From the NCBI GenBank assembly GCA_030647655.1, contig JAUSJH010000006.1, forward strand, positions 3,737 through 67,736: DNA of 64,000 nucleotides, in the 5' to 3' direction. The notes under the pieces were generated by a model. The model was not told the origin of the DNA. It worked only from the letters and a program-made list of their open reading frames with translations, and ran no database searches. Made by a program: the position numbers and the translations under genes. Below, piece by piece: positions 55,481 through 57,780 of this stretch. The stretch's first letter is position 1. Each line of letters opens with the position of its first letter. The DNA is from a bacterium. GTDB lineage: Bacteria; Patescibacteriota; Minisyncoccia; Phycocordibacterales; UBA2100.

Positions 55481-56239
55481 TTAACCGAGGACGAGCGAGC
55501 AGATGGCAGATTCGGAGAATCCGTCTATATCCAGAAGTCTTTCGATTTCCGGCTCGCGCACGCCGTCGATTGCGCAACATTTGATACCGAGTGCGGTGGC
55601 GACGAGATAGATGTTTTGGACGATAGCCCCCGCCTCAATGAGGATTTGCCGATACCCCCGCTCGCCGTACTTCATTTGATTGCGCTCGAAAACGGCCGTT
55701 ATTACAAGTGCACACGAGGCGTTTTGCGCCCATGGATAGGTGAAAAGCTCTGCGATATCCTCTTTCACAAAGGCCCGGGTCCATAATGCATCAAGTCCGT
55801 GCTCCTTGATGTTGTAGTGATAAAGACCCGATGGAATCCCATCACCTCCGACAAAGATAATCGGATATACTTCGAGAGGATAACGCCCGCCTCCGGAGGG
55901 CTGTGCGCGATGGTACCCATTTTCCTCCTCGCTCGTTGTGCCACAGGCGTACTTCAAGAGGGTACCCAACCTGGCTTTATTTAGAGGCCGCCCTGCAAAG
56001 TCGCGATGCGAACGGCGTGAGCGTATAAGGTTGGACAAATCCCCGCGTGGTCGTGCGTCGCCGAGTGTAATCGTCTTAAAACGCGGATACTGTTTGTAGA
56101 AGAGGGTTTTCCACTCAACTGGCCATAGACTCGAATCGAGTGGTATATTCACGCCCCCCTCTCCAGAACGGTCCTTGGAAGATTGATGAAAAAGCCCCGA
56201 GAAATCTATGTGCATACTTATGGAAACGGGTGTGGCCAT
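55481..56239 (-). CDS. SagB-type (McbC-like) FMN-dependent dehydrogenase / nitroreductase family
   Basis: RRSHRDF, PSGGGRYPLEVY, IEAGAIVQNIY hallmarks of the SagB/ThcOx family; overlaps the YcaO gene by 22 nt. Confidence 0.7.
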   Translation of the reverse strand: MATPVSISMHIDFSGLFHQSSKDRSGEGGVNIPLDSSLWPVEWKTLFYKQYPRFKTITLGDARPRGDLSNLIRSRRSHRDFAGRPLNKARLGTLLKYACGTTSEEENGYHRAQPSGGGRYPLEVYPIIFVGGDGIPSGLYHYNIKEHGLDALWTRAFVKEDIAELFTYPWAQNASCALVITAVFERNQMKYGERGYRQILIEAGAIVQNIYLVATALGIKCCAIDGVREPEIERLLDIDGFSESAICSLVLG

Positions 56240-57780
56240 GGATTGAAAATCTCTGCCGGTCTGTGGCCAAGTCGCACTGGAACATCGTGCAAGCGTGGCG
56301 CATCGAGTGTTGCTCGGTTCTCGTTCAAATAGAGGTGCATCAGCCTAGGAACGATGGTCTTCACCACGTGATAGCCAAGGGTTTTTAACACTTTATGATT
56401 AGCTTCATAACAGTACACCTCGTACCCATCACCGAGCTCCCTGAGTTTCCTAAGTATATACGCAATCTGGGCAGATGGAGTGTTGTGCCACGTGGCATCT
56501 CCCATGAATCCTTCAAAGCTCTGACGTGTTCCGGAAATGAAGAATTTGAAGCGCTTATACATTTCGGTGCCTTTCCATAAACAAAGCCGCTGATCCCTGC
56601 CTATAGTTGGATCGGTAAAGGGAATGTAGCTCTCCGGCAAAACATATCTCTCGGACGATGCGACCATGTTATATACTGCCAACGCCTCTCCTGCACTTTG
56701 GAACACCAGTTCTTTGAACGAAAACCCGGCGCTCCCACCGACGGCAATAATGGGTTCTCCGCCTCTGTGGTCTACGAGCACACATGCACATGATGGTACC
56801 CCGATATCCGTCGTGGTGTTGAGAAAGTAGTATTCCAACTCGTATCGGCGGAGATATTTGAGAAACTGTTTGATTTCTTTGTCCACTATCGTTGAGGGAT
56901 CGATTATTTTGGGAGACAAGGAATTCAACCAATAGATTAGGAAGCCGTCTCGCTGGATATTTTCCAAAAGGGATGAAAGAATTGCTTCTTCTCTCGTAAA
57001 GTGCCCCGCGCCGCCATTTGTCGTGGGCTGTGCCAAGGCCATCTCTCCATCTAGAAACTTGTAATTCCAATAGGCAAGCTGGGCCGGCATGAACACTTCA
57101 ATATCAGCCAAGAGTTCTCTGCCACGAACCCACATAACAGAGCGGTCATCTGTGCGTACGAAGACAGGAAACATTTCTTTCTGCCATGGAAGAAAGTTGT
57201 TGAGCTTGAATATGTTGAGAGCCGTCTTTTTTCTCTGGATTATTCCCACGTAGCTTGCACAATACAAATCCGCACGCCGATATATGGTGAGAAAATAACG
57301 TTCAAGAATCTCGCCGATTGCGCGCGACAACGACTCCTCGGGCGAGGATGTGCTACCAAATCCATGACGACCAACCGAGCGCCCGTCCGTGTCCGATGCA
57401 TCACTGCGTGGTGAAAGTCGTACCGAGAATGTTTTCGGCATATCCGTGCGAGAAGGAATGAATGAGAAGTGCTTTGAATCCGTGACGCCGTGCGAGTGGA
57501 GATAATTCAAAAGGATACGCCAGTTGAGCGGGACCCCTTCGGTGGGTACGAGTGCGTCTCTTCCCAAAAAATCAAGACGGTCCAAGAGCCCCGCCATCTT
57601 GAAATCCACGAGCTCATCCCATGAAAGAGACGATCTGAAACGCGAGCAAGGCTTAAGCGCTTCCTCAATTAATTTCTTTCTCTGTCTCAAAACATTTAGG
57701 GGAAACGGAGAAAATGTGGAGAGGGTTTGTTTTTGTTCTTTGGCATTTGGTGCTGGCATACCACAACGGTAGTATATCAA
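56218..57780 (-). CDS. YcaO-domain cyclodehydratase
   Basis: ATP-binding region GFGSTSSPEESLSRAIGEILERY, TNGGAGHFTREEAILSSLLENIQRD, C-terminal proline-rich PxPHPFP end typical of azoline-forming YcaOs; 520 aa with about 130-aa N-terminal extension. Confidence 0.7.
   Translation of the reverse strand: MIYYRCGMPAPNAKEQKQTLSTFSPFPLNVLRQRKKLIEEALKPCSRFRSSLSWDELVDFKMAGLLDRLDFLGRDALVPTEGVPLNWRILLNYLHSHGVTDSKHFSFIPSRTDMPKTFSVRLSPRSDASDTDGRSVGRHGFGSTSSPEESLSRAIGEILERYFLTIYRRADLYCASYVGIIQRKKTALNIFKLNNFLPWQKEMFPVFVRTDDRSVMWVRGRELLADIEVFMPAQLAYWNYKFLDGEMALAQPTTNGGAGHFTREEAILSSLLENIQRDGFLIYWLNSLSPKIIDPSTIVDKEIKQFLKYLRRYELEYYFLNTTTDIGVPSCACVLVDHRGGEPIIAVGGSAGFSFKELVFQSAGEALAVYNMVASSERYVLPESYIPFTDPTIGRDQRLCLWKGTEMYKRFKFFISGTRQSFEGFMGDATWHNTPSAQIAYILRKLRELGDGYEVYCYEANHKVLKTLGYHVVKTIVPRLMHLYLNENRATLDAPRLHDVPVRLGHRPAEIFNPWPHPFP

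Follow-up and report, generated by a model that had tools for sequence, protein, structure and literature searches.

The window analysed here, a 64-kb stretch of DNA, contains on its reverse strand the two reading frames of 520 aa and 252 aa on which the original prediction was built, a YcaO-type cyclodehydratase gene and a SagB-type dehydrogenase gene. Close to the pair lie genes of an envelope-type block and a gene for a small protein that is the likely substrate of both enzymes (Table 1).

Table 1. Genes and features at the YcaO–SagB locus (positions in the window).
Feature	Position	Strand	Description and basis
161-aa protein	47846..48331	(-)	Signal peptide and C-terminal helix; synteny
Cys-rich secreted protein	48338..49732	(-)	464 aa; synteny
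Membrane-anchored TPR protein	49775..50638	(-)	287 aa, conserved block member; phmmer homologues, Pfam TPR on homologues
X, membrane-anchored helical-repeat (TPR-like) protein	52218..53300	(-)	360 aa; directly 3' of the small-protein gene
Small protein, candidate precursor/substrate	53328..53687	(-)	119 aa (117 aa from ATG 53681); translation and conservation
Perfect tandem repeats in tail-coding DNA	53331..53405	(-)	Tandem Repeats Finder, 100% matches
Tail of small protein	53331..53534	(-)	68 aa, Gly/Ser/Cys/Asp/Glu-rich; Cys69, Cys90, 11 Ser, 2 Thr
VHAD junction motif of small protein	53532..53543	(-)	End of linker
Hydrophobic helix of small protein	about 53601..53651	(-)	After basic N-terminus, before 20-aa linker
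PRTase–beta-propeller fusion	53798..55480	(+)	560 aa, cytoplasmic; putative PRTase domain and beta-propeller, Pfam/NCBIfam matches
SagB-type FMN-dependent azoline dehydrogenase gene	55481..56239	(-)	Longest ORF 252 aa; TIGR03605
YcaO cyclodehydratase gene	56218..57780	(-)	520 aa, TTG start; Pfam, NCBIfam, predicted fold
YcaO clade-specific N-terminal domain	57358..57780	(-)	Residues 1–141
YcaO domain			Residues 142–520; C-terminal end NPWPHPFP
Intrinsic-terminator-like hairpin	57807..57835	(-)	11-bp stem with 8 G-C pairs, then T-run

Inspection of the YcaO translation located all the motifs that had been quoted for it, namely SLSRAIGEILERY, TNGGAGH...ENIQRD and the proline-rich C-terminus; the NCBI gene call for this protein (P0001) is 513 aa long and starts at Met8. 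The Pfam domain PF02624 (E 1.5e-43; 149.8 bits against a gathering score of 25.7) covers only residues 142–480, so the additional N-terminal region, initially put at about 130 aa, is real and comprises about 140 aa. The best NCBIfam match, by 40 orders of magnitude, is the SagD family model TIGR03604 (E 5e-55), which is covered over its whole length (positions 1–377) with a score of 186.9 bits, under the curated cut-off of 219.25. Membership of a non-cyclodehydratase YcaO clade, the outcome that would have spoken against the original prediction, was examined with the corresponding models, and both lie far under their cut-offs: the S12-accessory-type model TIGR00702 (E. coli-type YcaO) gives 36.2 bits against 75.65, and the thioamidation model TIGR03266 gives 52.4 bits against 365 (E 4e-14). 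Many of the homologues carry the automatic JGI name 'S12 methylthiotransferase accessory factor', which is a generic label.

The alignment of 31 YcaO homologues revealed that E157, E160 and R161 (GExLER) as well as E273 and R277 (ExIQRD) are invariant, with D278 conserved in at least 90%; these two acidic ATP/Mg-binding motifs align with EAIERY and E(I/L)VERD of MusD and TruD. All homologues keep P516, H517 and F519 at the C-terminus, where N513, P514, P518 and P520 reach at least 90% conservation; a Pro-rich C-terminus has been described as characteristic of azoline-forming YcaOs (PMC8442711). The AF2 model (pLDDT 91.7) finds LynD, MusD and TruD as its top Foldseek matches in the PDB. Sequence and predicted fold place the 520-aa YcaO protein nearest to the azoline-forming cyclodehydratases.

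The motifs reported for the partner enzyme, RRSHRDF and PSGGGRYPLEVY, are likewise present in its translation. This protein scores 131.8 bits with TIGR03605, over the cut-off of 78.4, and matches Pfam Nitroreductase with an E-value of 8e-21. Across 22 members of the SagB family, R74 and the PSGG...P.E.Y motif are invariant or nearly so and the K190–Y191 pair is invariant, Lys-Tyr being the catalytic pair of McbC (PMC6395948). The 22-nt overlap between the two genes holds for the longest SagB reading frame; the homologues, of 241–266 aa, align only from about residue 9–13, so that translation probably begins at the ATG at 56215, which would give a protein of 244 aa and replace the overlap by a 2-nt gap. 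Of 26 YcaO-family loci, 23 yielded a SagB homologue, mostly adjoining the YcaO gene. With TIGR03604 as the best match of one protein and the TIGR03605 threshold passed by the other, the assignment of the pair to the cyclodehydratase/dehydrogenase core of LAP/TOMM biosynthesis stands.

Azole-forming YcaO systems are thought to require an E1-like/RRE partner or a fused equivalent. The partner scan of the window comprised the ORFs from L3 to S10 (43969..60198) and the ORF 62326..63864, and neither Pfam nor NCBIfam identified an E1-like, ThiF-like, docking or RRE protein among them, in agreement with the absence of an E1-like C protein noted at the outset; no E1, ThiF or docking families were found among the called genes of the related loci L001, L003 and L005 either. 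The scanned window ORFs also contain no TfuA-like neighbour, leader peptidase, ABC exporter or immunity gene. The N-terminal region of the YcaO protein had been put forward as a possible recognition domain to be checked for an RRE fold, and the comparison with the RRE (a PqqD-like winged helix with a three-stranded sheet and a three-helix bundle) returned no RRE-like fold match and no sequence similarity to PqqD/RRE families. In a search of 1.84 billion representatives, this domain was seen only at the N-terminus of proteins of about 500–530 aa.

Upstream of the YcaO gene, the terminator-like hairpin sits between it and the gene of a 123-aa secreted protein (57851..58222), and marks the upstream edge of the YcaO–SagB transcription unit. 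The 123-aa protein had been suggested as an unconventional substrate, a proposal that is rejected in view of the terminator and the distribution of its homologues (0 of 40 related loci); it is also without a Cys/Ser-rich tail. Other short ORFs with Cys/Ser/Thr-rich ends between 45 and 64 kb are all antisense or overlapping, and none is conserved.

A different candidate is found downstream. The small protein is encoded 1.8 kb beyond SagB, outside the YcaO operon and separated from it in the window by one convergent gene, and with its Gly/Ser/Cys-rich tail and its conservation beside YcaO/SagB in relatives it overturns the initial statement that no Cys/Ser/Thr-rich precursor occurs nearby. It has no Pfam or NCBIfam match and is the sole ORF of its architecture in the whole window. 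A peptide of the same architecture is present in 22 of 26 distinct YcaO-family loci (22 of the 23 with sufficient flanking sequence) and in four loci that have no YcaO (L036, L037, L038 and L041), 26 peptides of this type being found in related loci besides that of the window; none was found in 178.6 kb of unrelated YcaO control loci. In nine loci (L009, L011, L014, L015, L016, L017, L019, L021 and L022) its gene is placed 19–92 bp from YcaO or SagB.

The peptide alignment shows a conserved leader ending in an (A/V)(H/Y)AD(A/V)P junction, followed by a hypervariable core of 17–70 aa with 0–9 Cys in which Ser/Thr are always present, and this combination is the usual pattern of a RiPP precursor. 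A leader-profile search of 5.8 billion sequences returned four matches, the leader being too short for a database of that size. The tails are strongly acidic and partly made of simple repeats. In the window the repeats consist of a 6-nt unit (x7.3), encoding (Gly-Glu)n, and a 9-nt unit (x4.3), encoding (Gly-Gly-Glu)n, and this section of the tail is slippage-prone. The VHAD junction is placed about 20 residues beyond the helix, farther than a canonical signal-peptidase site. The peptides of L010 and L024, both YcaO loci, contain no Cys. Gene neighbourhood and composition make the small protein the likely substrate of YcaO and SagB.

A closer view of the surroundings places the enzyme pair beside a block formed by the peptide, X, the 287-aa TPR protein and the PRTase–beta-propeller fusion. 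This block is usually found between rpsJ and rplC, directly upstream of the rplC operon and in the same orientation, and is vertically conserved at one chromosomal position. In at least 15 related loci an X homologue comes immediately after the peptide gene, with a gap of 0–66 bp where measured. X has no Pfam match; it carries a conserved C-terminal DPxFKxxLxxLGW motif, and a profile built from 13 homologues aligns residues 46–107 with consensus TPR proteins and also matches the N-terminus of LapB. Homologues of the 287-aa TPR protein occur in most related loci (phmmer E 1e-27 to 1e-105) in the order X–TPR. The fusion gene converges on SagB (0 intergenic bases) and points away from the peptide gene across a 110-bp spacer; it adjoins the YcaO locus in 13 of 26 cases and also stands beside the peptide where YcaO is absent. 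Its residues about 34–190 form a putative OPRT-like type I phosphoribosyltransferase domain and about 230–557 a PQQ-type beta-propeller (Pfam Beta-prop_ACSF4 and PQQ_2). The former scores 24.0 bits with PF00156 (Pribosyltran), just under the cut-off of 26.3, and 59.3 bits with TIGR00336 (pyrE; E 4e-16) against a cut-off of 106.8. An RKSRKK loop and a DD..N.G.S PRPP-type motif (hydrophobic-DD-xxx-SGxS) are conserved among 10 homologues, and presumably resemble the catalytic loop of PyrE.

Farther along, homologues of the 464-aa and 161-aa proteins, which have no Pfam matches, recur in unchanged order ahead of rplC in L001, L005, L010, L012, L020, L038 and L039, and their tie to the YcaO pair is positional only. 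Further recurrent neighbours of the block are an AMMECR1-like protein, a rhodanese and two proteins of no named family; Pfam assigned no families to the recurrent neighbours searched, which included the 429-aa and 531-aa proteins of L038 as well as X. When six loci were looked up directly with the PRTase fusion as anchor, peptide, X and TPR protein were present in all six and YcaO/SagB in only two, the YcaO gene of L039 having escaped the word-index search. Since the peptide and its neighbours occur also without YcaO/SagB, the two enzymes are best described as an optional tailoring extension of an envelope block that is older and vertically inherited. Conversely, ribosomal genes, X and the PRTase fusion were undetected near L011, L014, L015, L019, L021 and L022, and the peptide is still 19–92 bp from YcaO/SagB there.

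The explanation that we hold to be the probable one, with some reservation, is that the locus encodes an azol(in)e-forming pair of LAP/TOMM type, devoid of an E1/RRE partner and specific to Paceibacteria-type Patescibacteria, which acts as an optional module on the small protein. This protein would be made in the cytoplasm, with its N-terminal part (basic stretch, helix, linker of about 20 aa and the (A/V)(H/Y)AD(A/V)P junction) serving as the leader, probably recognised by the clade-specific N-terminal domain of the YcaO itself. With ATP, the YcaO domain would cyclodehydrate the tail cysteines (here Cys69 and Cys90) to azolines, some of the many tail Ser/Thr may be converted too, and the SagB-type flavoprotein would oxidise the azolines to thiazoles or oxazoles. 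The helix might then bring the modified protein to the membrane with its tail outside; since an N-in/C-out helix would expose the tail on the outer side of the cell, the enzymes would need to act before membrane insertion. The tail could stay anchored or be freed by cleavage after the signal-peptidase-like V-H-A site, and would then work together with the pair of extracytoplasmic, membrane-anchored TPR proteins whose genes lie downstream. As to its role, we lean towards an envelope or surface product rather than a diffusible antibiotic. A further-reaching version, which we regard as possible and put forward tentatively, is that several tailoring sets, the azole enzymes among them, can replace one another in working on a vertically inherited, membrane-anchored small protein with a hypervariable tail, which belongs with the two membrane TPR proteins and the PRTase–beta-propeller enzyme to a conserved envelope module of Paceibacteria, the product being a 'housekeeping' azole-decorated surface protein of an episymbiont that is recognised by an N-domain of new fold and not by an RRE.

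A secreted LAP antibiotic of the classical, microcin B17-like kind, in which the leader is cut, the azole-rich core is freed to kill competitors or hosts and the TPR proteins provide export or immunity, appears unlikely. The conserved leader with its Gly/Ser/Cys-rich hypervariable core does resemble McbA, microcin B17 is made by a YcaO/dehydrogenase complex with the leader protease encoded elsewhere on the chromosome (PMC6395948), and LAP clusters of CPR genomes have been read in this way (PMC7298704). Set against this, the block is vertically conserved at one position, runs in the same direction as rplC and is retained where the azole enzymes are absent; a helix resembling a membrane anchor takes the place of a soluble leader, the tails have the acidic, partly repetitive composition described above, and the scan for an exporter, immunity gene or peptidase nearby was negative.

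We judge it improbable, too, that YcaO and SagB act on another substrate (a precursor encoded elsewhere, a neighbouring envelope protein or a ribosomal protein) and that the small protein is just a syntenic neighbour. Such a reading would account for the four loci in which the peptide–X–TPR–PRTase block occurs without YcaO/SagB, and owing to them part of the peptide–YcaO adjacency could be inherited synteny; it would also suit the separate transcription units of the peptide and YcaO genes in the window. YcaOs acting on proteins are under discussion, the E. coli YcaO being a suggested candidate for the thioamidation of uL16, while an older annotation had it working together with RimO on uS12 (PMC7550191). 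Inherited synteny does not fit the six loci named above, in which the peptide remains close to YcaO/SagB without detected ribosomal context, X or PRTase, and the window has no other conserved short Cys/Ser/Thr-rich ORF. A SagB together with the Pro-rich C-terminus suggests azoles on a flexible Cys/Ser-rich stretch, such as the tail, and the low scores of the S12-accessory and thioamidation models argue in the same direction. A ribosomal protein, as the rpsJ–rplC position might imply, is an unlikely target, since at least seven family loci lack S10, L3 and EF-Tu in the available sequence and the peptide still adjoins YcaO/SagB.

Some other amide activation by the YcaO (thioamide, amidine or peptide-bond cleavage), with the nitroreductase-fold partner in a structural or other role, is very improbable: YcaO chemistry is diverse, the MusD structure is titled 'YcaO-mediated ATP-dependent peptidase activity in ribosomal peptide biosynthesis', streptamidine needs its dehydrogenase though the product shows no oxidation (PMC8442711), and genes of rhodanese (sulfurtransferase fold) lie near the block in L001, L012, L022, L040 and L041, but no rhodanese gene was found in the window, which has no TfuA-like neighbour among its scanned ORFs, TIGR03266 stays at 52 bits against 365, SagB passes its threshold with an invariant catalytic Lys-Tyr pair, and the Pro-rich C-terminus is typical of azoline formers.

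If the small protein does carry azoles, these host-dependent bacteria with reduced genomes would possess an envelope component with a heterocyclised backbone; the attachment-mediating surface molecules of Patescibacteria are, to our knowledge, poorly known. The candidate substrate would be an unusual one, membrane-anchor-like, with its gene fixed beside ribosomal protein genes and persisting without azole enzymes. A YcaO clade that relies on a small N-terminal domain of its own would represent a new solution to substrate recognition, and the trio of peptide, YcaO and SagB is small enough for direct heterologous study.

Among the systems available for comparison, those of Sharrar et al. 2020 (PMC7298704) come from the same radiation; that survey counts 110 LAP clusters across 93 genomes of CPR bacteria (51 Parcubacteria among them), with a nitroreductase adjoining the YcaO gene in 89 of the 110. 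Such systems are thus not rarely reported in CPR genomes, contrary to what had been supposed, and the YcaO–SagB pair is in itself not new, as combinations of this kind were catalogued there; the present locus would count among them. The detection there is at the level of genome mining ('detected as' LAP), with one Microgenomates example that has a peptidase and an 84-aa precursor, and the membrane-anchored xHAD precursor family, the N-domain, the PRTase-propeller/TPR block and the rpsJ–rplC position are not described in the passages considered here.

Microcin B17 (McbA, the E1-like/RRE scaffold McbB, McbC and the YcaO McbD) shares with this locus the YcaO and an FMN dehydrogenase with a catalytic Lys-Tyr, a conserved leader followed by a core rich in Gly, Ser and Cys, and a leader protease encoded outside the cluster (PMC6395948). 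It differs in its scaffold, since an McbB-like protein is absent here, where the YcaO instead bears a unique N-terminal domain of 140 aa, and the profile match to McbD is distant (E 5.6e-7); here, moreover, the leader is membrane-anchor-like, the core acidic, export and immunity genes are missing and the site beside the ribosomal protein genes is fixed.

The 'standalone' YcaOs of bottromycin resemble the present enzyme in working without an E1-like partner, and in the streptamidine cluster (AmiD/AmiE/AmiB) a flavin dehydrogenase gene adjoins that of a YcaO with a Pro-rich C-terminus (PMC8442711); both belong to actinobacterial clades with soluble precursors. In streptamidine the E1/RRE-like AmiB is cryptic, recognised only by fold prediction, and an equivalent partner may exist here, for which the PRTase–beta-propeller fusion is the only cytoplasmic candidate. 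The closest solved relatives are the cyanobactin heterocyclases LynD, TruD and PatD together with MusD, fused proteins of E1-like, RRE and YcaO parts, with profile E-values of about 1e-29 to 1e-26. They are also the nearest in fold, with a Foldseek E-value of 3e-23 and a TM-score of 0.65 on the query, and share with the YcaO of this locus the ATP-binding acidic motifs and the Pro-rich C-terminus.

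The pair of adjoining genes originally predicted to encode a YcaO cyclodehydratase and a SagB-type dehydrogenase was recovered at the predicted positions with every quoted motif. The 520-aa protein contains a YcaO domain (Pfam, E 1.5e-43) and its top NCBIfam match is the SagD-type thiazole/oxazole maturase model TIGR03604 (E 5e-55), which is covered in full at 186.9 bits, below the cut-off of 219.25. Matches to TIGR03266 (thioamidation) and TIGR00702 (E. coli type) were far weaker and well under the respective cut-offs, and the 252-aa partner (Nitroreductase, Pfam, E 8e-21) exceeds the threshold of TIGR03605, the model for SagB dehydrogenases (131.8 bits vs 78.4), so that neither a non-cyclodehydratase YcaO clade nor a generic nitroreductase is indicated. 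The predicted 22-nt overlap of the two genes holds for the longest SagB frame and disappears with the ATG at 56215, the likelier start since SagB homologues are 241–266 aa long and their alignment begins near residues 9–13.

An alignment of 31 YcaO members showed conservation of the acidic motifs GExLER and ExIQRD and, in the C-terminal ..NPWPHPFP, invariance of P516, H517 and F519, with at least 90% conservation at the remaining Pro positions; a published account names such a Pro-rich C-terminus as a hallmark of YcaOs that form azolines (PMC8442711). AlphaFold modelled the protein with high confidence (pLDDT 91.7, pTM 0.91), and the PDB entries that match the model best are the cyanobactin heterocyclases LynD, MusD and TruD, which form azolines, ahead of archaeal thioamide YcaOs, E. 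coli YcaO and McbD. Across the SagB family there is little or no variation at R74, PSGG..P.E.Y and K190-Y191; Lys-Tyr is the catalytic pair of McbC (PMC6395948). Family models, motifs, structural matches, the Pro-rich C-terminus and the Lys-Tyr pair thus give good support to the predicted assignment as azoline-forming cyclodehydratase and azoline dehydrogenase. The extra N-terminal domain of YcaO is also borne out, its ~140 residues carrying conserved motifs of their own (PCxRF, NWQ, NDxP and TDG in the 31 members). No E1/RRE partner was found among the scanned ORFs (43969..60198 and 62326..63864; called genes of the related loci L001, L003 and L005).

A database search returned 114 relatives of this YcaO, all ~500–530 aa; those with a named source are Patescibacteria (Paceibacterota, Kaiserbacteria, Pacebacteria), and one entry, on a 69-kb MAG contig, is identical (P0001). 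Some related genomes contain a second, divergent YcaO paralogue (~440–490 aa, ending in APHPFS; L005 1557–7076, L012 3–1229, L025 13602–15080), absent from the window, whose region may be a second RiPP-like cluster. In L005 the paralogue has for neighbours small secreted ORFs containing Cys and two proteins bearing SGGxDS/SGGxNS (PP-loop-like) motifs; in L025 it is accompanied by a SagB-like gene of its own.

Features of the locus
Feature	Position	Strand	Description
L3 (rplC)	43969..44577	(-)	one flank of the block
X	52218..53300	(-)	360 aa
Candidate precursor peptide	53328..53687	(-)	short ORF recurring beside the pair in homologous neighbourhoods
PRTase-propeller fusion	53798..55480	(+)	560 aa
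SagB-type dehydrogenase	55481..56239	(-)	252-aa ORF; Nitroreductase Pfam match, TIGR03605 passed
YcaO	56218..57780	(-)	520 aa, TTG start; YcaO Pfam domain at residues 142–480
S10 (rpsJ)	59761..60198	(-)	other flank of the block

The original view that no precursor is evident has to be revised, as a candidate peptide type is present in 22 of 26 distinct YcaO-family loci (window included), and three of the four loci without it are contigs ending within ~1.4 kb of the pair. In L009, L011, L014, L015, L016, L017, L019, L021 and L022 only 19–92 bp separate it from YcaO or SagB. The peptide comprises a basic N-terminus, a hydrophobic helix, a ~20-residue linker, an (A/V)(H/Y)AD(A/V)P junction motif and a tail of 17–70 residues, almost exclusively Gly, Ser, Cys, Thr, Asp, Glu, Ala and Pro. 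The window product reads MIMAILIKRVFKFAVYIVLTTLAFVLTILGGESRGHGLSNTLSFPAPYVHA | DAAGSGEGSGEGSSAGSCDGSSGGSGGSAEGTSDGTAGCEGSGG(EG)n(GGE)n, and part of the DNA encoding the tail consists of perfect tandem repeats with 6-nt and 9-nt units. Tails differ widely between loci, e.g. DGPGGLGDPVVVGDCCECCSC (L018), DVPGGCGTGSCAGGCTSCTSCSSCS... (L025) and DTCADGFSGIICASVSWCDSHGNLCGVYSGSACGGCGGGC... (L019). A filter for the peptide pattern retained a single ORF in the full 64-kb window and gave no hit in 178.6 kb of sequence flanking unrelated YcaO genes (Firmicutes, Actinomycetota, other phyla). Pfam and NCBIfam scans assigned the peptide to no family, and it is annotated as hypothetical wherever called. 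RiPP precursors are typically recognized by this combination of conserved leader, hypervariable Cys/Ser-rich core and tight enzyme linkage. The 123-aa secreted protein encoded upstream of YcaO, proposed earlier as a substrate, was rejected: none of the related loci holds a homologue, and a terminator hairpin (11-bp stem) separates its gene from YcaO.

The peptide gene is followed by that of X, which has a membrane anchor, a TPR-like helical domain and a C-terminal DPxFKxxLxxLGW motif; further downstream are genes for a TPR protein with a membrane anchor, a secreted Cys-rich protein and a small protein that carries a signal peptide and a C-terminal helix. Divergent from the peptide gene lies that for a cytoplasmic protein in which an OPRT-like phosphoribosyltransferase domain is fused to a PQQ-type beta-propeller, with conserved PRPP-type motif and RKSRKK loop; this family has more members than the YcaO clade and is more strongly conserved (among the matches listed, each of at least 120 clusters is at least 50% identical to the window protein). 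The block lies between rpsJ and rplC, co-oriented with rplC, in the window, L001, L005, L010, L012, L020, L038 and L039.

Large secreted proteins rich in Cys, with no Pfam match, are encoded between the TPR gene and rplC, at 48338–49732 (-) and 44698–47809 (-); a 464-aa one has three near-identical ~40-aa tandem repeats (CTGxLPSNATxCTGDTNPAQDLRWLSVTRCTSERKCQYT), and those of 552 and 483 aa, present in the window genome, were not detected in related loci. Two toxin-antitoxin pairs and an AAA_14/DUF4143 ATPase are specific to the window genome; the ATPase gene (50652–51845 (-)) breaks the otherwise conserved X-TPR order and is probably a genome-specific insertion, since related loci hold no counterpart. 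The last ~58 nt of rpsJ occur as three direct copies (58353–58410, 59061–59118, 59762–59819; 83–100% identical, spacing 701 and 708 bp), each interval holding one type II pair: PemK/MazF with MazE (58427–58998), and a toxin weakly resembling YoeB (E 0.008, below the Pfam cut-off) with an upstream 76-aa ORF (59244–59722). This looks like serial cassette insertion, with target duplication, into the rpsJ 3' end; in L001 an S10 fragment lies next to an rve transposase. S10 itself (145 aa, Pfam domain at residues 49–143) has a ~45-aa Lys/Ala/Pro-rich N-terminal extension whose length varies within the lineage, homologues being 120–157 aa. Upstream of tuf, a 512-aa protein (62326–63864 (-)) shows four PKD domains, internally duplicated halves and a weak, sub-threshold peptidoglycan-binding-like match at its N-terminus.

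In six look-ups anchored on the PRTase-propeller protein (L036–L041), peptide, X and TPR genes were present in all six and YcaO/SagB in two (L039, L040), with none within 10 kb in L036, L037, L038 and L041; genes that recur variably around this shared core encode an AMMECR1-like protein, a rhodanese and two uncharacterized proteins. This suggests an envelope module that is older and vertically inherited, with the azole pair as an optional addition for tailoring. The AMMECR1-like proteins near the peptide-X core are ~625–650 aa, and rhodanese genes also recur there. In L038, proteins of 429 and 531 aa without Pfam match follow the PRTase-propeller gene (11667–14553); they recur in several YcaO loci, with homologues in L008, L010, L020, L023 and L024.

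The YcaO N-domain would bind the peptide leader and YcaO, using ATP, would cyclodehydrate Cys69 and Cys90, perhaps with some Ser/Thr, the azolines then being oxidized to azoles by SagB. The N-in/C-out helix would insert or export the short protein post-translationally, and the tail, either remaining anchored or released after the V-H-A site, may act together with the extracytoplasmic TPR proteins. The product seems more likely to work in the envelope or at the surface than as a diffusible antibiotic, given a block that keeps its position, persists where the azole enzymes are missing and has no genes for an exporter, immunity or a peptidase; the argument is at its weakest here.

Nothing in the literature found describes the non-RRE N-domain specific to this clade, the xHAD family of membrane-anchor-type precursors, the link to the PRTase-propeller/TPR block or the rpsJ-rplC position. 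LAP (YcaO and nitroreductase) clusters were previously reported in CPR genomes, 51 Parcubacteria genomes among them (PMC7298704); the gene pair as such is therefore already known, and is not as rarely reported as first supposed. The trio of peptide, YcaO and SagB is small enough for decisive co-expression, and the Gly/Ser/Cys composition of the peptide recalls McbA.
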